Source: a virus
Lineage: Duplodnaviria > Caudoviricetes
DNA length: 52,455 nucleotides
Reading direction: 5' to 3' (one strand)
Virus record (IMG/VR): IMGVR_UViG_3300001533_001980
Location: 1-52,455 of that record
The number at the start of each line of letters is the position of its first letter. Positions within the stretch are counted from its first letter, which is position 1. The notes beneath the pieces are model-generated. The model did not search any database and was not told the origin of the DNA. It worked only from the letters and a program-made list of their open reading frames with translations. This document shows, in pieces, positions 3,175 to 27,627 of the stretch. The translations under genes and the position numbers were made by a program.

Positions 3175-4793
3175 TGTCCACATTCGATTACACTGTTGAA
3201 CTTGAGCGGTCTTTGCTCAAAATCGTAAGCTCCAGCTCTATGCAGGCTCGGAGGTACATGCATCGCGTCCGGGAGTCGCTTTTCACGTCGGAGGAACGGA
3301 AGTTTATCTTCAATGTCCTCAAAAAATCTCTTGATGTGACTGGTCAGCTAGCCACTCGCAAAGTGTTTGAATATGAGGTTGGTAAGCGTGTAGAGGATAG
3401 TGACCAGCAGTACTTTGTGGGAGAATGGAATCTGGTTGACGCGGTGGACACGCAAGACGCTCCTGAAGTACTGTTGGACAAATTAGAAGAAGCTAATACT
3501 GGTCGCGACATCGTGAAGCTGGGTGCGGAAGTCGATGCGCTGCTTGAGGGAGGGCGAATTGCAGAGTCCCTAGCCCATCTAAAGAGGCGATCTCTCTCCA
3601 TCGGTGGCAAAACGGACGATAGGCCGCTTGTTGAATTGACAGATTATCAGAATCGCGAACAGACGCTATTGGATAAGATAAAAAATCCAGATAAGTATCG
3701 TGGAATACAGACAGGATTTACCGCTTTCGATAATTTTGGTGGTGGATTGTTTCCCGGAGAGTTGACTCTTATCGCTGGTCTTACGGGGACTGGAAAATCT
3801 ACACTCGTCAGACAGATAGTGGCGAATGTCGTCACACATCCGCTCAATTTTGGCGCGAATGTGCTGTATGTCGCTAATGAGGAATACCTGGAGCAGGTAG
3901 AGCATAAGTTCGACGCTAACTTCTCAGAAGTGCCATATTTGGATTTCAAGCGTGGTAATATTTCGGATGAAGATATCGATAAGTGGCGCAATTGCATGCA
4001 GAAGTGGGAGCGCAACGGTAAGCCCAACGGTAGGGTCTTTATCAAGGAAGTTCCTGCCTTTACGGATGTTACTCTGGTCGAGCAAGCATACCGTCAGTGC
4101 GAGGCAAGGGGAATCAAGATTGGATTGATTATCATCGACCATCTTCCACATATCAAACCAATCCAACAGGTATGGGGGGAAAATGATGAGATGAAAAAAG
4201 CGGCGTCGGATTGCAAAGACTTAGCTCGCTCCTTGAGGGTGCATGTAGTGATTCCGACGCAGGCAGCGACCGAAGTCATGAAAAAGCAAGAGCGGGGAAG
4301 ACGGGGTAGTAAGTTGGATGTATATGGGTCGAAGGGACAAGTCCATGTCGCGAATACATTCATTTTGATAACCGAAACGGGCAAGGATGACGCTCAGCAG
4401 TGTGCCAATGAGTGGGACAAGGATGTTCTTTGGCTTGTCGATATCAAGAAAAACCGAGACGGACCTCCATTTTATTTTCGTGCTAAGCACAAGGTCAAGA
4501 TAGGACGGATTGAAGAGATACTGGGAACGGGGCAGAAGGGCGATCCTCTCGAAGACAAGGAAGATGACCCTCATCCGACCGTCAATCTCATTAAGAAGGA
4601 TGAGGCTATCGCCGACTCTGAGCAATCCGATGCTGTGAATTCGGCAATTGCGGATGGAGATGATGTGACGGAACCGGATGGCGGGGGCAATAAGACTAGC
4701 GATCCTGTCGAATTCGACGTTGGAATCAGGATGGGCGTGATTCGCAGGATGAGAGAGAGAAAAGCGAACGCATCTCGTAACTCAAGTGTATAA
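3174..4793 (+). CDS. dnaB: Replicative DnaB-like helicase
   Basis: Motifs GIQTGF, GELTLIAGLTGTGKS, IIIDH, KKNRDG. Confidence 0.9.
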   Translation: MSTFDYTVELERSLLKIVSSSSMQARRYMHRVRESLFTSEERKFIFNVLKKSLDVTGQLATRKVFEYEVGKRVEDSDQQYFVGEWNLVDAVDTQDAPEVLLDKLEEANTGRDIVKLGAEVDALLEGGRIAESLAHLKRRSLSIGGKTDDRPLVELTDYQNREQTLLDKIKNPDKYRGIQTGFTAFDNFGGGLFPGELTLIAGLTGTGKSTLVRQIVANVVTHPLNFGANVLYVANEEYLEQVEHKFDANFSEVPYLDFKRGNISDEDIDKWRNCMQKWERNGKPNGRVFIKEVPAFTDVTLVEQAYRQCEARGIKIGLIIIDHLPHIKPIQQVWGENDEMKKAASDCKDLARSLRVHVVIPTQAATEVMKKQERGRRGSKLDVYGSKGQVHVANTFILITETGKDDAQQCANEWDKDVLWLVDIKKNRDGPPFYFRAKHKVKIGRIEEILGTGQKGDPLEDKEDDPHPTVNLIKKDEAIADSEQSDAVNSAIADGDDVTEPDGGGNKTSDPVEFDVGIRMGVIRRMRERKANASRNSSV

Positions 4794-7926: not shown

Positions 7927-8346
7927 ATGCAAGCTAGTCAACCGGACTGTTTCGGGATACTGTGGGACGATACCGATCCGCAGTGTGCGAGGTGTGGTAT
8001 CAAGAGTTATTGTGAGCGATCCACGAAGAGACGCGGTAGCGGGGCACCTCCACCAGCCGAACCGGAGCCCAAATTGTCTGTGATTACCACGGAGAAGGAA
8101 CTCGAACCGACAAGTCCCTTGGACTATTTGCTAAAAAGTATTGAAGGCCGATACGACAGGGAGGACAGAATTGGGGAGAATGCCATCGCTCACTTCTTCA
8201 GGAAAAACGGAAGCAATATCATCCTCGTGACCGAATCCAAGGTTAGTGGCCGGATAAAGGTGCAGAAGAAGGGCTATGAGCGCATATTCGACGCCATCGA
8301 GTCTCTCGATCACGCAGAAGAAATTCTGGGGATTGTTCTCTCGTAA
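7927..8346 (+). CDS. Hypothetical protein with N-terminal CFG-x-CxxC-x4-C metal-binding motif
   Basis: PDCFGILWDDTDPQCARCGIKSYC. Confidence 0.7.
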   Translation: MQASQPDCFGILWDDTDPQCARCGIKSYCERSTKRRGSGAPPPAEPEPKLSVITTEKELEPTSPLDYLLKSIEGRYDREDRIGENAIAHFFRKNGSNIILVTESKVSGRIKVQKKGYERIFDAIESLDHAEEILGIVLS

Positions 8347-9251
8347 TGAGAGCGACGGCATTCCCCTATTACACGCCGCCGTTCGCAGAATACAATGTGG
8401 CGCAGCAAGCCGTTGTCCCCTTCTTGGATAAAGACTTGAACCTCGTTGTATCCTTCGCAACGGCGTCAGGAAAGACCGTGTTGGGCGAGGCGTGCTTCGG
8501 ATTTCATCTCCAGACTGAAACAGACTGCCGCGTTGCCTACGTGTGTCCATTTAAGAGTCTGGCAGCGGAGAAATTTCAGGATTGGAAGAACAATCCGCAA
8601 CTCAATGGGGGCGGGGTCGTTCTGTCTTCTACTGATTCAGATGCTGGGGTTAAAGACCATGAGTCGGCTCGGGTTGCCGTGGTAACGTGTGAATCGTTTG
8701 ACGCCAAAACCCGATCCAGGGCTTATAGAAATTGGCTTGGAAGCCTGGCGTGCGTCGTCTGGGACGAGGTACACTTGATAAACGACAAGAGCAGAGGGGG
8801 AGCTATTGAGTCATCCATGATGCGACTGACGGACATCAACCCTGCCGCCCGGATCATTCTTCTTTCTGCAACCATGGGGAACGCTATGGAGTTGTCCAAA
8901 TGGGTGAAATCTCTGAATGGCAAGCAAACCAAATGTATAGTGAGCGAGTGGAGACCATCCCGAATAGATATGGATTATGTTGTGGTTGCCGATGAGAGCG
9001 AAAAGATTGATGAGGCGGTACGTCTGGTATCTGAATCTTCTGGGAAAATCATCGTGTTCGTCCATTCCAAGGTGACGGGGAATGAGATTCTGAATAGACT
9101 TCGGGCACTTAAAATACGGTGTGCATTTCATAACGCCTCCAAGCGGCCAAAGGCCAGGGCAAAGATGGAAGAACTGTTTAATGACAGCATGTCTGGTTTC
9201 AATGTACTTGTTAGTACGTCTACACTGGGAGCGGGAGTTAACATAGGCTAA
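8346..9251 (+). CDS. Ski2/Hel308-like SF2 helicase, N-terminal half (motifs I-V)
   Basis: TASGKT, DEVH, LSAT, FHNA; ends at motif V STLGAGVNIG*. Confidence 0.9.
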   Translation: MRATAFPYYTPPFAEYNVAQQAVVPFLDKDLNLVVSFATASGKTVLGEACFGFHLQTETDCRVAYVCPFKSLAAEKFQDWKNNPQLNGGGVVLSSTDSDAGVKDHESARVAVVTCESFDAKTRSRAYRNWLGSLACVVWDEVHLINDKSRGGAIESSMMRLTDINPAARIILLSATMGNAMELSKWVKSLNGKQTKCIVSEWRPSRIDMDYVVVADESEKIDEAVRLVSESSGKIIVFVHSKVTGNEILNRLRALKIRCAFHNASKRPKARAKMEELFNDSMSGFNVLVSTSTLGAGVNIG

Positions 9252-9901: not shown

Positions 9902-10909
9902 ATGGCAGACAGGATCATAGTTGTTGGGGCGAAGCGTGCTAGGCAAATAGTTCCCGCGTCCGAGATAGCGCAAATGTGCGGCAGAGGAGGGCGAAAGCAT
10001 GGCGGAAAAGCTTGCCGCGCAACAGTCATTGTGGAATCTGAGTTAGAAGATGAGATTATGGAAGGTATGGCTGATGGTGGAAACTTCAAAGTTAGTTCAT
10101 CTTTGGGGGATTCAAGCATGGTGGCGTTTCATATCCTTCCCGAGATAAGCCATCAGACTGTAACCGATGAGAAGACGGCTGAATCGTGGTACCGGCGTAG
10201 CTTCGGAGCCGCACAGGGAATCACTCCGGATTTCAAAGAGGTTTTTGATTTATTACGGGACGTGCAGGCTGTTACCTTGCGTGATGGCAAGTTTGAAGTT
10301 ACCGACGTGGGCAGAATAGCCGCACGGTTATATTTTCACCCGGCTGATGTGTGGGCGTGGAAAGACAACTTCGACACTATTTTTAAGTATCAGATTGAGG
10401 ACAACGATATAGCTGTTGCATGGGCGATGGGGACCGTTCCTTGCACCCGTATATCCGGAGATTTTGGGGATAAGTATTGGCCGGTGGTCGAGGAAACTAA
10501 AAATGAAATACCGCCCATTCTTGAGAAGTCGAAGGGTACAATCGTAACAATAACACTGTGGAGATATATCCTCGGGGGACCTTCTGTTGGTAAGATGCGT
10601 AATCAGGCTTTGTGTTTGAGAGATAACGGAAGTCGCATCTGTCAGGCATTGATAGATTTGGACTCCGCAATGGAATGGAGAAAGCAAACGTTTTTGAAAG
10701 AATTGGCGTGGCGACTCAAAGGGGGCATTCCATCGTATCTCGCCCCCCTATGCTGTCTTCCAGGCATAACCAAGGGGCGGGCTCGGTTTCTGTATGACCA
10801 GGGGTTTACCTGCCGTGGTGAAATTGCGGAGCGGTATCACAACTTAGAGGGAGATGTGGATGAACTGTTTTTGAAAGCGTTGAGGAACATCGCACATGGA
10901 TTTTGCTGA
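9902..10909 (+). CDS. Ski2/Hel308-like helicase, C-terminal half (motif VI, winged helix, ratchet, HhH)
   Basis: QMCGRGGR, TDVGRIAARLY, LPGITKGRARFLY. Confidence 0.85.
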   Translation: MADRIIVVGAKRARQIVPASEIAQMCGRGGRKHGGKACRATVIVESELEDEIMEGMADGGNFKVSSSLGDSSMVAFHILPEISHQTVTDEKTAESWYRRSFGAAQGITPDFKEVFDLLRDVQAVTLRDGKFEVTDVGRIAARLYFHPADVWAWKDNFDTIFKYQIEDNDIAVAWAMGTVPCTRISGDFGDKYWPVVEETKNEIPPILEKSKGTIVTITLWRYILGGPSVGKMRNQALCLRDNGSRICQALIDLDSAMEWRKQTFLKELAWRLKGGIPSYLAPLCCLPGITKGRARFLYDQGFTCRGEIAERYHNLEGDVDELFLKALRNIAHGFC

Positions 10910-12043: not shown

Positions 12044-12634
12044 GTGGCAAATGTGATCGAAAATATAATGGCAACATGTGATGGCTTGGGAGACATGAAG
12101 CTTTGCGGCATCAAGCTGGAAGATGCCAGTCGGGACTTACTTAACGTAATGGATGGGTTTCTCGATCAGCATGTGGCAATGCAGCCCGCAGCCATGGCTT
12201 ACTACCTAACCCTCAAAAAGACCGCGAAACGGCGACTTGACAATGCCCATGCGGCCCACGACAGATGGGAAAAGAAACTGTATGCGCTGTCCAAAGCCGC
12301 CGTCGAGTCTGGCACAACTGCTAAATCGGCTATAAAGGTAGAGGACGTTAAGGCCCGATTCATTGTCGACAACGAACCGGAAATCGAGAAGTGGGAGGCA
12401 AGGATCGGCAGGGCGCAGGAGGAATATGACACTTTGGACGCATGGTGTGAGGCGTGGAAGCAGAAATCGTTCTCTTTGAGGGAGTATATATCCATAGAGG
12501 AAGACGAGAGATTCGGTGGAAGCGATTCTATAGCGGAAAACCGGAAAGGAGGGAATGCACGGACGGATGACGATCAACGCATTGACAGGGTTCGTCAAAT
12601 GATCCGAAAAAAAAGGAACCAGTCTACAGTCTAG
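12044..12634 (+). CDS. UvsY-like recombination mediator (putative)
   Basis: Helical protein directly upstream of SSB and RecA; AAMAYY...AWKQKSFSL pattern. Confidence 0.45.
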   Translation: MANVIENIMATCDGLGDMKLCGIKLEDASRDLLNVMDGFLDQHVAMQPAAMAYYLTLKKTAKRRLDNAHAAHDRWEKKLYALSKAAVESGTTAKSAIKVEDVKARFIVDNEPEIEKWEARIGRAQEEYDTLDAWCEAWKQKSFSLREYISIEEDERFGGSDSIAENRKGGNARTDDDQRIDRVRQMIRKKRNQSTV

Positions 12635-12719: not shown

Positions 12720-13688
12720 ATGTCAACGTTAGACAAAATCAGGAAACTCAGATCCAGCAATCCGCAAGGCGGCAACGCCAAACTACGGGGAATTTTTCAC
12801 ACGTGGAAAGACGGCGACAACATCGTCCGTCTTGTGGGCGAATTCCTCGAAACGAAAACCCACTTCATTGCACCTGCGCCGAAACGCGGTGAACGCGGTC
12901 TGTGTCAGCAGGTGGCCTTCTCTGGCAACGATAAGATGCCGCAGGTCATCAACTGTCTGGATTGGGACGTGAAAAAGGAAGAGGAACGACGGGGTGGATG
13001 CCCAATCTGCCGCCTTCACGCCATTGCCAGGCAAGTGTTGAAGGACGAATGCACAGAAGAAGAAAGGAAATTGTTCGACAAATTAAGGCAGGACACGGCC
13101 CCCCGGACACTTTTAAAGTGGAACATTCTCGACAGGGATGATCCATTCGTGTTGTCTGTGGAGGATGGCGCGGAACGCAAGGTTTTGGGTTTCAAAATTG
13201 CGAGCGTTGGAAAAGAGGCGTGGGCCGATATTGATGGTATTTTCGATCAGATGGGATTCGATATCTCTGACGTGGAAGACGGGATCGACATCTGTGTGAC
13301 CAAGGCAAATAATGGCACGAGGGTCGCTTATTCCGCTAAGGCGGTCATTGATAAGTCCACAAAGCCTCCGTCTGCGAAGATGACGCCCCTTACGGACGAA
13401 GAGAAACAGCTCGCAAGGCACGACCTTGAGCAAATTTGCGGGAAATACGTCGAAGCGAGGCGCATTCTCGATGCCCTCCACGAAGATTACCGAGATCTGC
13501 TGGAGGTCAATGACGGAGCCGGTGACGATGTCTCGCTTGGCGTAGACAGCGACGAGGCTGACGATGCGGAAACGGAAGCCGCGCAGTCCGCTGTGTCCGA
13601 AGACGACGGTGATGGTCTACTGTCTGGTACGATTCCGACGAATAAGGTTCGGCGCACTCCTGTCAAAGAGGGCTCGGAAAAAAACTGA
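12720..13688 (+). CDS. gp32-like single-stranded DNA-binding protein
   Basis: GDNIVRLV, CPIC, NILDRD, GIDICVTK and an acidic C-terminal tail; lies between UvsY-like and recA. Confidence 0.75.
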   Translation: MSTLDKIRKLRSSNPQGGNAKLRGIFHTWKDGDNIVRLVGEFLETKTHFIAPAPKRGERGLCQQVAFSGNDKMPQVINCLDWDVKKEEERRGGCPICRLHAIARQVLKDECTEEERKLFDKLRQDTAPRTLLKWNILDRDDPFVLSVEDGAERKVLGFKIASVGKEAWADIDGIFDQMGFDISDVEDGIDICVTKANNGTRVAYSAKAVIDKSTKPPSAKMTPLTDEEKQLARHDLEQICGKYVEARRILDALHEDYRDLLEVNDGAGDDVSLGVDSDEADDAETEAAQSAVSEDDGDGLLSGTIPTNKVRRTPVKEGSEKN

Positions 13689-13718
13689 CATTGGCCTCTC
13701 CCGATAAGGAGGGGCCGG
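13679..13718 (+). promoter_or_regulatory. -1 programmed ribosomal frameshift signal
   Basis: In-frame A_AAA_AAC heptamer at 13679-13685, 5-nt spacer, then an 11-bp stem ttggcctctcc/ggaggggccgg. Confidence 0.75.
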
Positions 13719-13873
13719 TCGGAGAGGATATGAAACCCAAACCGGGTGCCGATTTCGCTGGTTCATTGGCAAAACCGGAGGACTTTATGTGCTTTGGCAC
13801 GATTGATCCTGATCATCCGGAGTGCAAGGAATGCCCTTTGCGTGACAAGTGCGCGGCGGAGTCATCCCAGTAG
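13691..13873 (+). CDS. Cys4 module, probably the -1 frameshift extension of SSB
   Basis: CFGTIDPDHPECKECPLRDKC; lies in the -1 frame of ssb; its TTG start is buried in the hairpin. Confidence 0.7.
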   Translation: MASPDKEGPVGEDMKPKPGADFAGSLAKPEDFMCFGTIDPDHPECKECPLRDKCAAESSQ

Positions 13874-13882
13874 AAAAGAAAT

Positions 13883-13908
13883 GAGGGGCGGCCTTCGGGC
13901 CGCCCTTC
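13883..13908 (+). terminator. GC-rich hairpin with cUUCGg loop
   Basis: gaggggcggc-cttcgg-gccgcccttc; the U-tract is weak. Confidence 0.5.
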
Positions 13909-13923
13909 CCTTGAGGCGTAAAA

Positions 13924-15081
13924 ATGAGTAGCAAATCTGAATCAAGAGAATCTCGCATATCTCGTATCTGCTCAGAAATCAATAAAAGCGATTGGGGAGG
14001 AGAGGACAACAATGCTGTAACGTGGCTGGGGTCACGAGAAACGGTATCCATTCCGCGTTGGTCCTCTGGGTGTCCGGCATTGGATGACGCCCTTGGGGGC
14101 GGATGGCCGAAGGGCCGGTTCATTGAATTTTTCGGACCACCCAGCGGCGGAAAAACCACAGCTTGTTATCACGCTATTGCGGAACATCAGAAAGCGTTTC
14201 CAGATGAAGATTGTGGACTTGTGGATTCTGAATTTACTTTCGATGAGGAATATGCGCAGGCTATTGGGGTAAATACTAAATATCTCATTGTTCATCAACC
14301 TGAACACGGGAAACAAGCTCTCAATGTACTTGGGATGTTCATCAAGATGGGATTGGGGCTGTGCGTTGTGGATTCGGTAGCCGCATTGACTACGAAGGAA
14401 GAGTTGGAGGGGGATGTCGGCAACATTCAAGTTGGCGCTCAAGCTCGTATGATGTCTACTGCTCTTAAGCGGTTGACCGCAGAAGCGGGACTGCGGCACA
14501 CATCGGTTATCTGGACCAACCAGATTCGAGAGAAGATCGGCGTCAAGTGGGGAAATCCCGAAACCACGCCAGCGGGTCATGCTCTTAAGCATTATGCGTC
14601 CATCCGATGTCGTTTTAATCATATTGGCAACATCAAAGAGGGTGATGAAATAGTATCATCCAAGACTCGTGCGGATGTTCAAAAAAATAAAACTTCAGCA
14701 CCATTTCGCCGTGCGGAGTTCTGTATTACATTTGGCATAGGCATTGATATAGTTGCGGCTATCCTTGACGACGCGATTGCCTATAAAGTGGTTGACAAGA
14801 GGGGTTCGTGGCTCTCTTTCGAGGGTGAACAACTTGGTCAGGGAAGGGCAATCGTATTGTCCATGTTGCGGTCAGACGCGGCAATGACGGATCGAATTCG
14901 GAAAGCACTTGAAGATAAGAAGTTGCTAATCGAGACGGGAGGCAAGACCATCAACGTAAGTGAGAAAGAAACTGCTGGCAAAGAGATCAAGAGACCAAAA
15001 AGGACTCCCGTGATGGACGAAGTGGATCAAGACGAGATTGGAAGTTCGGACGGCGCGGAGGTGTATGTCGAAGATGCGTAG
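13924..15081 (+). CDS. recA: RecA recombinase
   Basis: GPPSGGKTT, VVDSVAAL, GAQARMMS, NQIREKIG, LKHYASIR. Confidence 0.97.
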   Translation: MSSKSESRESRISRICSEINKSDWGGEDNNAVTWLGSRETVSIPRWSSGCPALDDALGGGWPKGRFIEFFGPPSGGKTTACYHAIAEHQKAFPDEDCGLVDSEFTFDEEYAQAIGVNTKYLIVHQPEHGKQALNVLGMFIKMGLGLCVVDSVAALTTKEELEGDVGNIQVGAQARMMSTALKRLTAEAGLRHTSVIWTNQIREKIGVKWGNPETTPAGHALKHYASIRCRFNHIGNIKEGDEIVSSKTRADVQKNKTSAPFRRAEFCITFGIGIDIVAAILDDAIAYKVVDKRGSWLSFEGEQLGQGRAIVLSMLRSDAAMTDRIRKALEDKKLLIETGGKTINVSEKETAGKEIKRPKRTPVMDEVDQDEIGSSDGAEVYVEDA

Positions 15082-23041: not shown

Positions 23042-23701
23042 ATGATTGTCATATGTTCACAGCAAGCGTTAAATCCAGCAGGAGTTGCTCGGGTATGCCG
23101 TGAAAATCCCAGCGAAGAAGTTTATGCGCTACCCTGGGTGACGAATTCGAGTGAGTTAGATGAAAACTTCAAGGCTAACAGGACAAGTCCGAATCGGATG
23201 CTGCCGTGTGTCCCAAACAAGGAACACGCGGAAGGGGAAAGTCTGAATTTCTATGACCGCCTTGAAGACGATGCTTTCGGAACTATGGCGGATGCCTTGG
23301 CCCACGGAGCACTGGTTCTCAATGAGATAATGAAGCCTTCGTGCGAGAGCGCATTCTACGGAAGGGTGTTATCTCCGGGGTGGGTTCCTAACTCTGTCGC
23401 CATTATGAACAGCACGACGGCGGATCGTCTCATCCCATGTGAGCCCTTATCCGCTAGGCTATACGCCATGACGACGGTGCCAGTTATGGTGAAATGTACG
23501 AGTGATTTCAAAGAATCGACGGGATGCTCGGTCGAAGAAATTCCAGTTTTGTTGGCAACAGATTTCATTCCGCGCATCGGGGCTTTTATGCAGTTCTACA
23601 AGTTGTTTTCGGGAAAGGACTGTGTTTTTTCCGCCCCCATCGAGGACTTTTCTGGTCATTTACCCCTCCGGTGGAGGTATAATCGGGCATACAAGGTGTG
23701 A
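23042..23701 (+). CDS. Hypothetical protein abutting dnaE
   Basis: ORF ends 1 nt before the dnaE start; its own start is uncertain. Confidence 0.55.
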   Translation: MIVICSQQALNPAGVARVCRENPSEEVYALPWVTNSSELDENFKANRTSPNRMLPCVPNKEHAEGESLNFYDRLEDDAFGTMADALAHGALVLNEIMKPSCESAFYGRVLSPGWVPNSVAIMNSTTADRLIPCEPLSARLYAMTTVPVMVKCTSDFKESTGCSVEEIPVLLATDFIPRIGAFMQFYKLFSGKDCVFSAPIEDFSGHLPLRWRYNRAYKV

Positions 23702-23702
23702 A

Positions 23703-25334
23703 ATGCTAGAAGACTTCTACGATAAGTATGACGTTCCCATTGGGGATAGGATTCCATTGGAGAAAAATATCCTCCTCGTGGTTCCGTCCCCCAAGTACGA
23801 CATATCGGAAGCGGTGAATGGACTGGGAGTATCTCGCTATGAGGTTGCCGTTACGTGGCCCAAAGACTCGATTGACATGCTCGCCGAAATTTGTGCGATG
23901 AAACCCAAGTTCGTTATCCAGTGTGGGCGCGGAATCACTCGCAAATTCCCCGCTGCCGAGACGGATGCGGAATTTAAGTGCTTTCGAGATAGGGCAATAG
24001 CCGCGACCGCTGATTCATTTGTCGGGCTTCACCACCATGACGAATTCAGCATTCGTGATGGGCTGGGGACGGTGAAGAGTCTGGTGGAATTGCTAAAAAA
24101 ACAGCGTCGATCTTTCTGTTGCGTGTCGAATCACGGGACGGTTGGCGGGTGGGTTCGCCAATATAGAGCGTGCAAGAGCGCGGGAGTGAAGCCAATTTTT
24201 GCCATGGAGGCGTATGTCTCCTCGTACCGGGGAGACGATGCCGAGCGTAAGAAAAAACATCGCAAGGCAAACCATCTTCTCTTGATTGCCAGGACGAGAG
24301 AGGGGTTCGACAACATCATTCGCATTCACAATGACGCGCAACTCAATGGGTTCTATTACAGTCCTCGTGTAGACCGAAAAGCAATTCGCAAGTGGGGCAA
24401 GGGCATATGTGCGACTTCGGCGTGTATGAAAGGCGAATTGCCCGAACTTCTCATGGAGAATCAATACCATCGCGCTCGCCGTCTGTATGAATTTTACGCT
24501 AAGTGTTTTGACCAGTTCTACATTGAGGTTCAGATTATCGAATGCGAGATGCAACGGGAGGTCAATCGAAGGCTTGTCAAGTTCGCACAGGACGTAGGGG
24601 CACCTTTGGTGATTGGTTGCGACTCCCATTACCTTGAGCCAGAACACGATTCTACCCACAACATTCTCATGTGTATTCGTCAGGGCAAGACTGTTATGGA
24701 GCAGAAGGAGCGTGACGATATTTGGGAATTCGACGTTGGAAACCTCTACTATCGAAATGCAGAGCAAGTTCGCCGTGGATTCTACAAGCCCTTCAAGGAG
24801 AAGGGGGCGGACTCAGAATCTCCTGCATTTTGCGACGATGTATTCACGGATGAAGTGTTCGAGTCCGCTATGGCGAATACTCGACTTATTGCCGTGGATT
24901 CCGAGATTATTGAGCTGGATTCTACCATTCGGCTACCTTGTCTGTATCCTGACGGGCGCAGTATTTTGCGCAATAAGGTCAACGATGGCTTCAGACGCAG
25001 GGGGCTCGATAATGGGTCGTCATATCTGGCTCAAGATGGTAAAAAAGTGAAGATTCCAGCTCAAGCATATATAGACAGACTGTGTATGGAGTTCGATGTC
25101 ATAACCAAGTTAGGATGGACGGACTATTTCCTGATCGTTGAAAAGATTGTCTCTGACGCCAAGGCAAAATACGGAGAATGGGTTGTTGGGATGGGGAGAG
25201 GAAGTGCAGCCGGTTCGGTGGTGTGTTATTGCCTTGGGATTACAGATGTAGATCCGCTCGTACATGGTCTTCTTTTCGAGCGATTTCTCTCGGCAGACAG
25301 AGTTGGAATTTCCGCTTGCTCTTTTGAGGTGTGA
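23703..25334 (+). CDS. dnaE: DNA polymerase III alpha, N-terminal part (PHP + start of palm)
   Basis: LHHHDEFSIRDG, SACMKGE, DSHY, GRGSAAGS, LLFERFL, then stop. Confidence 0.92.
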   Translation: MLEDFYDKYDVPIGDRIPLEKNILLVVPSPKYDISEAVNGLGVSRYEVAVTWPKDSIDMLAEICAMKPKFVIQCGRGITRKFPAAETDAEFKCFRDRAIAATADSFVGLHHHDEFSIRDGLGTVKSLVELLKKQRRSFCCVSNHGTVGGWVRQYRACKSAGVKPIFAMEAYVSSYRGDDAERKKKHRKANHLLLIARTREGFDNIIRIHNDAQLNGFYYSPRVDRKAIRKWGKGICATSACMKGELPELLMENQYHRARRLYEFYAKCFDQFYIEVQIIECEMQREVNRRLVKFAQDVGAPLVIGCDSHYLEPEHDSTHNILMCIRQGKTVMEQKERDDIWEFDVGNLYYRNAEQVRRGFYKPFKEKGADSESPAFCDDVFTDEVFESAMANTRLIAVDSEIIELDSTIRLPCLYPDGRSILRNKVNDGFRRRGLDNGSSYLAQDGKKVKIPAQAYIDRLCMEFDVITKLGWTDYFLIVEKIVSDAKAKYGEWVVGMGRGSAAGSVVCYCLGITDVDPLVHGLLFERFLSADRVGISACSFEV

Positions 25335-25338
25335 ACGC

Positions 25339-27627
25339 ATGACATCTATTGAAAAACTGATAGAAATATGTGATGCGAGGTTGGTTGAATTAGGGTTATC
25401 ATCCGAGTATCGCGTTAGAATGGAAGACGAGGTTCTCCACCTTGAGAGATGGCATGATTACGGCAATCGAGACATGGCGGCTGAGCTTTTGAGCAAGATG
25501 GGCAATTCCCCCGTTCCGTCAAATAAGTCTGGCTCCTTGATATTGTTTCTTATGGGGATTTCGTCGGTTGATCCAATAGAACATGGCATCCCGATGTCCA
25601 GTGCGACAATCAGGAGCGGAGACGCTCCCGACATAGATAATGATTTTGACCCACGATATAGAGAGGACATTAAGCGTCATATCGTGGAGTCATTCGGGGA
25701 AGAGCGTGTCTGCTCGATTGGATCGTATCAAACCTATCGAACAAGTTCCGTGCTGACCGATGTAGCCCGAACGCTCGGTCTGGATATTCATGAGATTCGG
25801 GCTATAACTAAAAAGATTCAACCATTGCAGTCTTTCGAGGACGAAGAGGGGCAAGAGCAGAAGGTTGATGATATGAGTTTTGATGATTTATGCGAGCATT
25901 ATCCTGACCTGAAGGCATACCTTGAAAAGTATCCAGCGGTACGGAGGCACGCAGAAGTTCTCCGCAATCAAGTCAAGAACATGGGGACGCACGCAGGGGG
26001 CGTAATTATATCAGACCTCAATTTGCAAGGGCGAATACCTGTTCTATATGATAAGCCATCCAGTGAATCCAGAAAGATCATTTCGGCATGGGCTGAGGCA
26101 CCCGGCAAGAGCGAAGATTTGAGCGAGGTAGGACTTGTAAAATTCGATATTTTAGGGCTGAACACCCTTTCTGTTATATCGGACTGCATGGCACTGATTG
26201 AGAAAACGAGGGGCAAGAAAATAACAAGGGAGCAAGTTCCGATTGACGACAGGGAATCAATTCGCACTTGCTCTCGTGGTGACTTGGTGGGAATCTTTCA
26301 GCTTGAAAATCCAGCGACATTACCGGTGGCAAGGGAGGTGGCCCTTGAGACTCTTGGCGACGTTTCCGCTTTGACCTCTCTCATTCGCCCCGGACCAAGA
26401 GACATGGGGATGGATATGGAGTATGCTCGACGCAAGCATGGTCATCCCTACGTTATGCCTGATTTTCTAAAGCGCATGCTGGCAGACACATACGGAACAG
26501 TGGTTTTTCAGGAGCAGGCGATGTCTGTCGCACAGAAGATAGCGGGTCTTTCCAAGCCAGAATCTTACGGATTTGTTAAAGCAATCGCTAAGAAGCTGAA
26601 AGACAAAATGGCATCATTTCATCAGAAATTCAGAGATGGTTCCAAGCCACTACGAGATTCTGGCGAGCTGACTATGGAAGATGTTGATGCGATTTACAAT
26701 TTGCTGGAGACTTTTGCAGGATATGCGTTCAACCGGGCACATGCCGTCTCATATTCAGCTATTAGTACGATTCAGTTATGGTTAAAATACCATTATTTTC
26801 CCGAATTCTTGTGTGCCCTCATCAATAATACCGATCCTGGCAAGAAGAAACATGGTTCTTCCAATATCATGGTGGATTACATAAATTATTCTCGTCGAAG
26901 AGGCGTTGCTGTGCTCGGACCCCATATAAGTAAGAGCAAGGGGAGTTTCACGCTAGACAATGGAGATATTCGTTTTTCGCTGGGGCACATCAAGTACGTG
27001 GCGACTATGGCAAATGTAATCGAGTCGTTTCAGCCCATCGTCAGCATGGAGGATTTTCACGAAAGGGTGAAAGTAACGAGCGTAGGAAAGACGGGGCGCA
27101 AAACAAGTCGGAGACCTAACAAGCGGCAAGTGGAGAGTCTTATTGCGGCTGGTGCTTTTGACCATTTAGGGACTCGCAATGATGTAGCAGCGAAATACTA
27201 TGAATTAAGAAAGGGCAAGGAGGAAGATCCCCCGGAGAGAACTGATGATGAATGGGTAAATATGGAAAAAGAGGTAATTGGGGTATGCCTGTCAAAAGAA
27301 CCACTTTACAAACAGTATGAAGAACTCATTCGCAAGAATAAGTGGACGGCGATTCATGGGATAAGTGACAAGAAGAAAGTCCGGGTGTTCGGCAAGGTTG
27401 AAAATATTAGTCCTCATACGTCCAAGGCTGGCAACTCAATGTATATAGTAGTCCTTGGTGATGGTTTGGACGTTATGAAATTTTTCGTATTTGCTGGCGG
27501 CATGGAGTTCTTCCGTGAGAATGTTAAGATTGGGAATATCGGAGCGTTTCCACTGGATAGGTTTGACGACTCGGATACCCGTTTTTTTGATGATCGGGGT
27601 AATGTTGAAATTCTCAAAATGAAGTAG
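25339..27627 (+). CDS. dnaE: DNA polymerase III alpha, C-terminal part (catalytic Asps, fingers, HhH, OB)
   Basis: PDIDNDFD, HAGGV, KFDILGL, IRPGP, FQEQ, YAFNRAHA; GAGGTG RBS. Confidence 0.93.
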   Translation: MTSIEKLIEICDARLVELGLSSEYRVRMEDEVLHLERWHDYGNRDMAAELLSKMGNSPVPSNKSGSLILFLMGISSVDPIEHGIPMSSATIRSGDAPDIDNDFDPRYREDIKRHIVESFGEERVCSIGSYQTYRTSSVLTDVARTLGLDIHEIRAITKKIQPLQSFEDEEGQEQKVDDMSFDDLCEHYPDLKAYLEKYPAVRRHAEVLRNQVKNMGTHAGGVIISDLNLQGRIPVLYDKPSSESRKIISAWAEAPGKSEDLSEVGLVKFDILGLNTLSVISDCMALIEKTRGKKITREQVPIDDRESIRTCSRGDLVGIFQLENPATLPVAREVALETLGDVSALTSLIRPGPRDMGMDMEYARRKHGHPYVMPDFLKRMLADTYGTVVFQEQAMSVAQKIAGLSKPESYGFVKAIAKKLKDKMASFHQKFRDGSKPLRDSGELTMEDVDAIYNLLETFAGYAFNRAHAVSYSAISTIQLWLKYHYFPEFLCALINNTDPGKKKHGSSNIMVDYINYSRRRGVAVLGPHISKSKGSFTLDNGDIRFSLGHIKYVATMANVIESFQPIVSMEDFHERVKVTSVGKTGRKTSRRPNKRQVESLIAAGAFDHLGTRNDVAAKYYELRKGKEEDPPERTDDEWVNMEKEVIGVCLSKEPLYKQYEELIRKNKWTAIHGISDKKKVRVFGKVENISPHTSKAGNSMYIVVLGDGLDVMKFFVFAGGMEFFRENVKIGNIGAFPLDRFDDSDTRFFDDRGNVEILKMK

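Follow-up and report, generated by a model that had tools for sequence, protein, structure and literature searches.

A probable −1 ribosomal frameshift site at the end of a phage gp32-type SSB gene that would append a four-cysteine module

The window, by which we mean the whole 52,455-nucleotide stretch of viral DNA analysed here, carries on its plus strand a gene for a gp32-type single-stranded DNA-binding protein (SSB) at positions 12720 to 13688 (322 codons in the ORF list, giving a short isoform of 322 aa in the 0 frame), which lies within a replication module and is flanked by UvsY-like and RecA/UvsX-like genes. The sequence and an AF2 model (pLDDT 84.6) give a folded core and a disordered acidic tail with the C-terminal end ...RTPVKEGSEKN. 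When the model was compared with PDB by Foldseek, ranks 1 to 6 were all T4 or RB69 gp32 (E 7.6e-5 to 6.9e-4, probability 0.99-1.00, TM on target 0.41-0.55), which points to a gp32 core fold for the modelled protein. In PHROGs it matched phrog_1192, an SSB family, at E 1e-5. Other sequence searches were poorer: the window protein matched no Pfam family at E up to 0.1, PF08804 (gp32-like SSB) was matched by only 2 of 43 relatives (best E 3.2e-6), the SSB profile matched nothing in PDB by sequence at E up to 1, and tblastn of the SSB against 50,697 GenBank phage records gave no match. It may be added that H48, C79, C94 and C97 are invariant in the 43 aligned relatives; the Zn site of gp32 comprises one His and three Cys, and we take this His/Cys3 set as its candidate counterpart. 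The identification as an SSB is thus backed by the predicted gp32 fold, the PHROG match and the replication-module setting. T4 and RB69 gp32 resemble the window protein in fold, in the disordered acidic C-terminal tail and in their UvsY- and UvsX-like neighbours, but they are remote from it in sequence and have neither recoding nor the cysteine module described below.

The 3′ end of the SSB gene reads GAA (13677-13679) AAA AAC (13683-13685) TGA (13686-13688). As a first-pass annotation of this DNA had noted, it contains an in-frame slippery heptamer, A_AAA_AAC, which we place at 13679 to 13685 on the plus strand, inside an A7 run (13678-13684), in the correct 0-frame phase and directly abutting the 0-frame stop codon TGA. 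The last stop codon of the −1 frame upstream is TAA at 13643-13645, and from 13646 that frame is open up to TAG at 13871-13873. A shift must therefore fall in the overlap from 13646 to 13685, a stretch of 13 codons in which A_AAA_AAC is the only in-phase X_XXY_YYZ heptamer. The extension in the −1 frame, LTLASPDKEGPVGEDMKPKPGADFAGSLAKPEDFMCFG..., occupies 13685 to 13873 on the plus strand and has 62 codons counted from CTG 13685, close to the 60 or so first estimated, so that the predicted long isoform would have 322 + 62 = 384 aa. The same heptamer is a proven bacterial −1 site in a cluster of IS elements (PMC4066793). As a measure of chance within the window, an in-phase heptamer closes 3 of its 151 stop-to-stop ORFs with 100 codons or more, and in 2 of these 3 the −1 frame stays open for 60 codons or longer; besides the SSB gene, this concerns a spurious frame inside the polymerase gene. 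Taken alone, the signals of the window are suggestive, and their weight comes from the relatives.

Near its end the −1 frame encodes four cysteines in the pattern C-x10-C-x2-C-x5-C (core at 13790 to 13852, plus strand; Cys codons at 13790, 13823, 13832 and 13850). The spacing first reported, CFG-x7-CxxC-x4-C, was miscounted and should read C-FG-x8-C-x2-C-x5-C. In 58 modules the four Cys are invariant, the F, G and E are at least 90% conserved, and the Cys spacing is 10-2-5 in 51 cases and 11-2-5 in the other 7. Database searches gave little for this module. The module of the window matched no Pfam family, and the 58 modules gave only scattered sub-threshold rows, among them WhiB touched by 2 of the 58 (best E 0.043); PHROGs returned phrog_13400, of unknown function, at E 0.0044; the module profile matched nothing in PDB by sequence at E up to 10; the ESM Atlas gave only unnamed 'hypothetical protein' clusters with scores up to 0.91; and Foldseek with the module model gave only two PDB rows, EndoIII and MUTYH, at E 7.5 and 8.6 and probability 0.03. 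The ligand spacings of known 4Fe-4S proteins are C-x6-C-x2-C-x5-C in EndoIII/MutY and C-xn-C-x2-C-x5-C in WhiB-like proteins. The C-x2-C-x5-C spacing of the last three Cys is shared with both in 58 of 58 modules, whereas the first spacer of 10-11 residues differs from that of EndoIII/MutY and no sequence or fold similarity to these proteins is significant. The module would presumably bind a metal, Zn or possibly a 4Fe-4S cluster. We also searched IMG/VR from the module side with degenerate DNA patterns, and 9 out of 9 genuine modules lay directly behind an SSB gene (the second pattern gave 12 stretches, 3 of them chance matches); among contigs of prokaryote genomes the module pattern had 4 matches, none of them a relative. 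None of the cluster names for ten non-SSB carriers of the module was informative.

A GC-rich hairpin, the putative frameshift stimulator, follows the heptamer at 13691 to 13718 on the plus strand. Its arms (5′ 13692-13701, 3′ 13708-13717) form 10 bp including 2 G-U pairs around the loop CGAUAA, and the pair U13691-G13718 lengthens the stem to 11 bp. The 11-bp stem 5 nt past the heptamer that had been proposed is thereby confirmed, the stem being 10-11 bp and the spacer 5-6 nt depending on whether this pair is counted. An outer helix (13685-89/13718-22) is also predicted. The 91-nt fold has an MFE of −34.1 kcal/mol and a z of −2.21, with 7 of 200 shuffles equally stable, and on its own the hairpin of the window is only modestly unusual. 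We considered it as an intrinsic terminator and rejected this, as there is no T-run after it and the terminator scan reported none at this place on the plus strand; Rfam, run on the whole window at the gathering score, gave 0 matches. Another GC-rich hairpin (13886 to 13905, 8 bp, loop TTCG) is found between the module ORF and recA. It is terminator-like on the minus strand only, its plus-strand tail TTCCCTTG being too T-poor for the scan. In relative L001 the module is likewise followed by such a hairpin, there with a T-rich tail, and the hairpin of the window may mark the end of an SSB-module transcription unit.

We examined 101 sources of related sequence, 86 of which include the SSB stop and reduce to 65 distinct stop contexts. 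Of these 65 relatives, 39 have the module in the open −1 frame, 19 as an in-frame fusion and 2 in the +1 frame, and in 5 it was not seen (3 cut too short, 1 mis-anchored and only L021 truly lacking it); L098, a longer duplicate of L087, is also in the −1 layout. An in-phase X_XXY_YYZ heptamer is present inside the overlap in 38 of the 39 −1-class relatives, and in 36 of 39 no more than one codon separates it from the 0-frame stop. The overlap has a median of 12 codons and is only 3-4 codons long in L030, L019 and L068. The exceptions are L036, which has neither a heptamer nor a start codon, and L055 and L076, with the module in +1. Lysine codons in the last 6 positions are biased to AAA (AAA 63 : AAG 18, against 313 : 874 in the gene body, Fisher p 2.3e-20), while the tails of in-frame relatives have AAA 14 : AAG 56. 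On the tree the shift state is kept across a clade of 39 rows (35 shift), within which, despite divergence, the sequence comparisons show conservation of the module, of the open −1 frame and of the heptamer with its abutting stop. The window falls in a 4-row clade, all of it shift (support 98), and the in-frame fusions mostly in another clade. The features expected of −1 programmed frameshifting, an in-phase heptamer and an open −1 frame with a conserved predicted product, are therefore both seen at this locus.

The relatives closest to the window, L001, L022 and L026 (64-77% identity), have the same heptamer, stop and hairpin, which answers the call of the first-pass annotation for conservation of heptamer and stem in homologues, and L010 shares A_AAA_AAC and the stop. 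The hairpin stands at the same position in the three while its sequence differs, and 5 of the 11 consensus pairs in the 4-member clade are kept through changes on both sides; compensatory changes were seen in three subfamily alignments. In L001 the next 60 nt have a z of only −0.11. Over the −1-class relatives the 60 nt downstream have a mean MFE of −19.0 as compared to −14.2 in ORF bodies and a mean z of −1.94, with z < −1.5 in 21 of 39 and no marked downstream structure in the remaining 18. The structural component of a −1 frameshift signal, expected about 5-9 nt downstream of the heptamer, is thus found in the window as a predicted, positionally conserved hairpin.

An A-run that separates two frames may also be an artefact, an indel error or a recent frameshift mutation having broken an in-frame SSB-Cys4 fusion. 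Homopolymers are indel-prone, in-frame fusions do exist among the relatives, and L056 is one A away from its shift-class neighbours. Yet the A7 is the same in contigs of runs X1, X2 and X3 (from 2 studies, with two of these runs possibly the source itself; these contigs are of DNA, and no RNA run was listed as containing 13300-14000), 11 cluster representatives from the group of the window share one end residue, L001 and L022 have an identical GAAAAAAACTGA despite about 70% protein identity, and the abutting stop and the shift state persist through a diverged clade. With data from runs, relatives, clusters and clade already contradicting it, we regard such an artefact or decay as very improbable. 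The prospect that homologues would turn out to be simple in-frame fusions and the A7 an error, considered at the outset, is not borne out: such fusions do occur, but mostly in another clade, and an A-run is missing from the junction in 18 of the 19.

The same long isoform could instead be made by transcriptional slippage, RNA polymerase adding one A in the A-run. This is the mechanism of Thermus thermophilus dnaX at an A9 run, and bacterial polymerase slippage takes runs of about 9 or more, A6-A7 being short for it to be productive. The run is A7 in the window and A6-A7 in its clade, below this threshold, but A9 or A10 in 23 of the 39 −1-class relatives at the same site. Of these 23 sites, which in run length resemble the Thermus case, 12 have weak structure (MFE weaker than −15), about half thus lacking a marked hairpin. 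Variants in run length also fuse the frames, as in L056 (A10) and in fragment P0093, which reads through in one frame, and the +1 module of L055 (A9) could be served by other step sizes. Against polymerase slippage, structure is stronger at runs of up to 8 and at non-A heptamers (n=13) than at A9-10 (n=23), with −23.8 versus −16.7 (Mann-Whitney p 0.0097), and wherever the run is short a strong hairpin follows after 4-6 nt, which is the geometry of a ribosomal stimulator. The conserved stop directly after the run also speaks against it. Moreover, four relatives have in-phase heptamers that are not homopolymers and that a polymerase could not use, and these argue for ribosomal slippage; the non-A types are G_GGA_AAC (L030), C_CCA_AAA and C_CCT_TTC/T (C_CCT_TTC in L019 and L068). 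The window, with A7 and a hairpin, is in this respect unlike the Thermus gene. We consider transcriptional slippage unlikely, and it would concern mainly the A9 relatives.

A further reading is that there is no transframe product and that the module is translated by itself from ATG 13730, as a 47-aa protein that acts with SSB in trans, the hairpin serving to couple its translation to SSB termination or to stabilise the mRNA. The window itself offers some ground for this, since GGAGAGG (13721-27) stands 5 nt before that ATG (whole element 13721 to 13732, plus strand). The first-pass annotation was right that the downstream TTG (13691) is in the stem, but it underplayed this good Shine-Dalgarno (SD) site. 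Also, the outer helix covers the first G's of the SD, which a terminating ribosome would expose, and the hairpin could serve such coupling instead of frameshifting. A GTG occurs in L022 (with an SD-like motif) and in L026 at a similar distance from Cys1, and gene calls contain many small stand-alone module ORFs of 30-160 aa. The survey of the −1-class relatives goes the other way: before the module there is no ATG in 31 of 39 and no ATG, GTG or TTG whatever in 15 of 39, and in 36 of 39 no start codon between the SSB stop and Cys1 is preceded by a strong SD, the window being among the 3 that have one. L001, in the same 4-member clade, has no ATG, GTG or TTG before a Met next to Cys1, yet its upstream peptide KPKPGADY..KAKPEDY is conserved. 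No stop ever interrupts the module's frame on the way back to the slip site, and among the 41 non-fused cases this frame is −1 in 39; the module is covalently part of SSB in the 19 fused relatives, and a separate protein would leave the heptamer, the adjacent stop and the AAA bias unexplained. Independent or coupled initiation is plausible in the window's subfamily, and a free 47-aa protein may also be made in this phage; as a replacement for the transframe product, a separate protein seems to us improbable, and so does a hairpin whose role is confined to coupling or mRNA stability.

We therefore favour a −1 ribosomal frameshift at A_AAA_AAC, aided by the hairpin, by which one gene would probably give two forms of SSB. 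The two isoforms proposed in the first-pass annotation gain support from the 39 of 65 relatives with this layout, nearly all with the heptamer and most without a start codon for the module. Most ribosomes would terminate at TGA 13686, and their product would be the 322-aa SSB, its acidic tail left free. A fraction would pause on A_AAA_AAC against the hairpin at 13691-13718, with the stop codon next, and slip one base back, tRNA-Lys moving from AAA to AAA and tRNA-Asn from AAC to AAA. The slipped ribosomes would then read CTG 13685 onward for 62 codons to give the 384-aa SSB, whose tail would consist of a linker and the predicted metal-binding module C-x10-C-x2-C-x5-C. That the slip takes place, how often it does so, and that it is ribosomal and not transcriptional in nature, we infer from comparison of sequences.

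Among known systems, E. coli dnaX makes tau and gamma through A_AAA_AAG, a 3′ stem-loop and an upstream SD-like element. Like the SSB gene, dnaX acts in replication and combines an A-rich heptamer with a hairpin a few nt further on; its two isoforms, made at a fixed ratio, differ in a C-terminal region of interaction, as those of SSB would. In dnaX, however, the shift hits a stop and shortens the protein, whereas the SSB heptamer abuts the 0-frame stop and the shift would add a domain; also the Z base of the heptamer is C in the window. Upstream of the heptamer the window has AGAGGG with nothing comparable in L026, and no SD-like element conserved 5′ of the heptamer in dnaX fashion was found among the window and the relatives compared. 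The label 'dnaX-style' first given to the site thus holds for the signal but not for the product, which here would be lengthened, and neither the shorter isoform nor the upstream SD-like enhancer specific to dnaX is seen.

Textbook cases of programmed frameshifting are the tail chaperones and capsid proteins of phages and, among bacteria, dnaX. The lambda tail assembly chaperone, with its G/GT-type −1 frameshift at G_GGA_AAG, is similar to the SSB case in that the first of the two ORFs carries the slip site at its 3′ end, a minority of the product gains a C-terminal domain (as is proposed for SSB), and the arrangement is kept across diverged phages while the sequence drifts (compare G_GGA_AAC in L030). 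It differs in that the present gene codes for an SSB of replication and recombination and not for tail assembly, and in that the added Cys4 module is fused in frame in some relatives. Literature searches brought up no description of recoding in the SSB gene of a phage, and term searches in the first part of the Atkins 2016 review and in the PRFect paper turned up no SSB or gp32 frameshift.

The SSB tail is a hub that recruits replication and recombination partners, and two tails would imply two pools of SSB with different partners, the module presumably altering which partners are recruited. Going further, we offer as a speculation, to which we give a small though not negligible chance, that this clade of large, uncultured phages uses recoding to tune the share of SSB that carries a redox-active 4Fe-4S module. 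The short form would then present a free acidic tip to replisome and recombination partners, and in the long form the tip would be capped by an iron-sulfur domain held to DNA through its SSB coat, lineages having repeatedly switched between fusion, hairpin-driven frameshift and A9 polymerase slippage to set the ratio. In this reading the same mini-domain, undescribed so far, is reused as tandem copies at the termini of HEAT/cNMP-binding, TPR/Mrr and SAP proteins. For annotation, gene callers report the SSB and, apart from it, a small ORF called 'hypothetical' or a piece of it that lacks a start, and would be systematically wrong here, and for a module that has no Pfam family the link to SSB is a first functional handle. 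If the frameshift is true, this phage SSB would be a second replication protein whose C-terminal interaction region is under recoding control, and its family would show in-frame fusion, slippage of the ribosome and, probably, slippage of the polymerase standing in for each other at one site.

The 322-aa ORF at 12720-13688 has no Pfam family, matches the PHROG SSB family 1192 (E 1e-5) and was modelled confidently by AlphaFold with 43 relatives as input (pLDDT 84.6), residues 276-322 being disordered. Searching the PDB by sequence gave no match, nor did tblastn against 50,697 GenBank phage records, and PF08804 was matched by 2 of the 43 relatives. When the model was compared with PDB structures, the best six matches were all T4 or RB69 gp32 (E 7.6e-5 to 6.9e-4). 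Also, His48, Cys79, Cys94 and Cys97 are invariant in the relatives. On account of the family match, the gp32 fold matches and these four residues we accept the ORF as a phage SSB of gp32 type, remote in kinship. It lies inside a replication and recombination block, between a UvsY-like gene (12044-12634; phrog_231, E 3.2e-4) and a RecA/UvsX-like gene (13924-15081; PF00154, E 3.9e-78), and the replication block further holds helicases, a DnaB-like helicase, a primase, an exonuclease and a DNA polymerase. CheckV gives the 52,455-bp IMG/VR record a completeness of 16%, and the window therefore represents only part of a phage genome that is much larger. The DNA polymerase (phrog_405) is split between overlapping forward-strand ORFs in different frames, 23502-25334 and 25264-27627, covering profile positions 37-440 and 410-1043 respectively. 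The first ends in ...GLLFERFLSADRVGISACSFEV* and the homology of the second picks up about 225 nt further on. The junction lacks a homopolymer run, and none of the Rfam intron families matches the window. The two ORFs may represent a split gene, a gene with an intervening sequence, or a further site of recoding. Two other forward-strand ORFs share a match to PHROG 6819 (Holliday-junction branch-migration helicase) at consecutive profile positions, 23-302 (8346-9251) and 330-466 (9902-10909); about 650 nt separate them, and they are possibly a second split gene.

The SSB gene ends in GAA AAA AAC TGA, as the first-pass annotation had read it, with an A7 run at 13678-13684 and the slippery heptamer A_AAA_AAC at 13679-13685, in the correct phase and abutting the stop. 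The 11-bp stem that this annotation placed at 13691-13718, five nt downstream, is recovered on folding: 13692-13701 pairs with 13708-13717 around the loop CGAUAA and is extendable to 13691/13718, the spacer from the heptamer being 5-6 nt. Its -1 frame of about 60 codons with a Cys4 tail also stands, as no stop occurs from 13646 until TAG 13871-13873 (62 codons counted from CTG 13685), and only its x7 and x4 spacings were miscounts, the C-terminal motif being C-FG-x8-C-x2-C-x5-C. The RNA structure of the window is on its own unremarkable (91-nt fold, z -2.21, equally stable in 7 of 200 shuffles). An in-phase terminal heptamer is found in 3 of the 151 long stop-to-stop ORFs of the window, and in two of these three the -1 frame is also open for 60 codons or more; one is SSB, and the other is a non-coding frame within the polymerase gene. 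Since heptamer and open -1 frame thus recur in the window, the case rests on comparison with relatives.

A protein search with the SSB gave 92 cluster representatives. Eleven of these continue in frame into a C-terminal Cys4 module, 62 stop after KK and 0-2 further residues, and at that position the window's group, 11 in number, has ..KN or ..GN as its ending. The SSB stop was included in 86 of the 101 sources examined (100 fetched loci and the window), yielding 65 distinct stop contexts. The module lies in the -1 frame with no stop between it and the SSB end in 39 of these, is fused in frame in 19, occupies the +1 frame in 2 (L055, L076) and is not seen in 5. Among these last, L027, L087 and L096 are too short and L093 is mis-anchored, leaving L021 alone as truly without a module; a longer copy of L087 (L098) has the -1 layout. 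IMG/VR was also searched with a loose module DNA pattern, which returned 12 stretches, 9 genuine modules and 3 chance matches. An SSB gene stands directly in front of all 9, two of which are on new contigs with A9 and then a stop, and the search from the module side agrees with the layout seen from the SSB side. In some cases (L005:3482-4155, L082:878-1308, and proteins P0099, P0102, P0108, P0115 and P0123 from the module profile search) the -1 extension is much longer, with 115-195 codons before the first cysteine, and double zinc-ribbon motifs precede the module in such extensions (P0123: PF12773 DZR, E 5.7e-12).

An in-phase X_XXY_YYZ heptamer occurs within the frame overlap in 38 of the 39 -1-class loci, and in 36 it ends 0 or 1 codon ahead of the SSB stop; L036 has neither heptamer nor start codon. 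The two frames overlap by a median of 12 codons; in 14 of 41 the overlap does not exceed 10 codons, and it falls to three codons including G_GGA_AAC in L030 and four with C_CCT_TTC in L068. Non-A heptamers, each in phase, comprise G_GGA_AAC, C_CCA_AAA, C_CCT_TTC and C_CCT_TTT. The heptamer C_CCT_TTY of L068 and L095 is made up of the Pro-Phe codons of a ..DPF-like tip, which we liken to that of E. coli SSB. The 0-frame SSB of several distant relatives (L020 at ~3340-3410, L068:3467, L095:2159, L021:3455) ends in ..EEILPF, ..EDTPF, ..EEDPF or ..DDIPF, endings that resemble the C-terminal tip of E. coli SSB; L020 has an A9 run 22 codons upstream of this end, and the two frames therefore yield alternative tails. 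As for a start codon of the module's own, the stretch from the SSB stop to the first cysteine has no ATG in 31 of 39 loci, no ATG, GTG or TTG in 15, and no start with a strong SD-like word in 36. In L001 (77% identity in A1, the alignment of SSB relatives) GAAAAAAACTGA is identical and the peptide KPKPGADY..KAKPEDY conserved, and the first possible start is a Met beside the first cysteine. Lysine in the last six SSB codons is AAA 63 : AAG 18 as against 313 : 874 in gene bodies (p 2.3e-20), so the A-run is under selection at the nucleotide level; the Lys-rich tails of the in-frame class have AAA 14 : AAG 56. The 60 nt past the site fold more stably than ORF bodies (mean -19.0 vs -14.2 kcal/mol), with a mean z of -1.94 and z below -1.5 in 21 of 39. 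In three small subfamily alignments, which were not structure-guided, 5 of 11, 9 of 20 and 9 of 22 predicted pairs are preserved despite two-sided changes. Judged from sequence, the -1-class layout looks like recoding and not two genes.

The first-pass annotation had itself raised an A7 sequencing error with homologues that are simple in-frame fusions. This is contradicted: the A7 reads identically in contigs of three runs, which come from two studies (two of the runs may be the record's source, the third being a further sample from one of these two studies), the window's run and stop recur in L001 and L022 at ~70% protein identity, and among the 19 in-frame relatives 18 lack an A-run where SSB and module join. 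We therefore reject an assembly error at the window's A7. Elsewhere, L056 (~2050, junction LKKKVT) has A10 against A9 in its neighbours, which puts SSB and module in one frame, and the fragment P0093 also reads through in one frame. Such contigs may reflect natural variation in run length or else errors of assembly in homopolymers, so one or the other does occur in individual contigs.

For the window we favour ribosomal -1 slippage, because the run is only A7 (A6 in L026), because a hairpin stands at stimulator distance with the stop codon in the next position, and because the relatives' heptamers include types unusable for polymerase slippage. PMC4066793 records A_AAA_AAC, in an IS cluster, among the bacterial frameshift sites that have been proven. 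Transcriptional slippage is a serious alternative in the hairpin-less A9-A10 relatives; structures past A-runs of at most 8 or past non-A heptamers (n=13, mean -23.8) are stronger than those past A9-10 sites (n=23, -16.7; p 0.0097), and the ribosomal and transcriptional routes would differ by one junction residue, Asn versus Lys. In the window, coupled independent initiation at ATG 13730 of the -1 frame is plausible, since the hairpin's predicted outer helix overlies the first bases of the SD before it. This ATG follows GGAGAGG, a good ribosome-binding site, the window is among only three loci with an ATG and strong SD before the module, and a GTG lies close to this position in L022 and L026. 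A free 47-aa module protein may exist besides the long isoform; in place of it is less likely. In a quick, unrooted ML tree of 64 SSB rows, a 39-row clade holds 35 shift, 3 in-frame and 1 unclassified rows and a 19-row clade 14 in-frame and 5 shift; the tree requires at least 9 state changes, and well-supported branches impose 3 of these, gain and loss being indistinguishable as the tree is unrooted. The window's clade of four rows is all shift (support 98).

Across 58 aligned modules the four cysteines are invariant and F, G and E near-invariant, the spacing being 10-2-5 in 51 and 11-2-5 in 7. The module has no Pfam family, no PDB sequence relative and no informative ESM Atlas cluster. Its profile, run against 1.84 billion representatives, matched 146 proteins at E <= 1e-3, including small ORFs (30-160 aa), SSB fusions (~300-450 aa) and unrelated proteins whose ends carry the module 2-4 times in tandem, namely HEAT plus cyclic-nucleotide-binding proteins, TPR proteins, of which one has an Mrr nuclease domain, and a SAP-domain protein. 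It looks like an undescribed widespread domain. The tandem-module non-SSB proteins P0095, P0113, P0134, P0171, P0168, P0183 and P0196 carry no informative names. C-x2-C-x5-C is the spacing of 4Fe-4S ligands in EndoIII/MutY and WhiB-like proteins. The AF2 model of the module is moderate (pLDDT 77.4) and its sole two Foldseek rows are EndoIII/MUTYH (E 7.5 and 8.6), and 2 of the 58 modules show a marginal match to Pfam WhiB (E 0.043 or worse); a 4Fe-4S module is a lead only, zinc being equally possible.

Our literature searches turned up no account of recoding in a phage SSB gene, nor did term searches in part of a 2016 recoding review and in the main text of the PRFect paper. The type of signal is canonical, the gene unexpected and the domain undescribed. 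The acidic C-terminal tail of gp32 and bacterial SSBs recruits partner proteins. The short form would end with such a tail, and in the long form the tail would run on through a linker and a conserved stretch of acidic and aromatic residues, which reads FDFSxIDP in many relatives and ADFAGSLAKPEDF in the window, into the Cys4 module. The likely result would be two SSB pools with different partner sets or regulation, the ratio of which would be set by slip efficiency.
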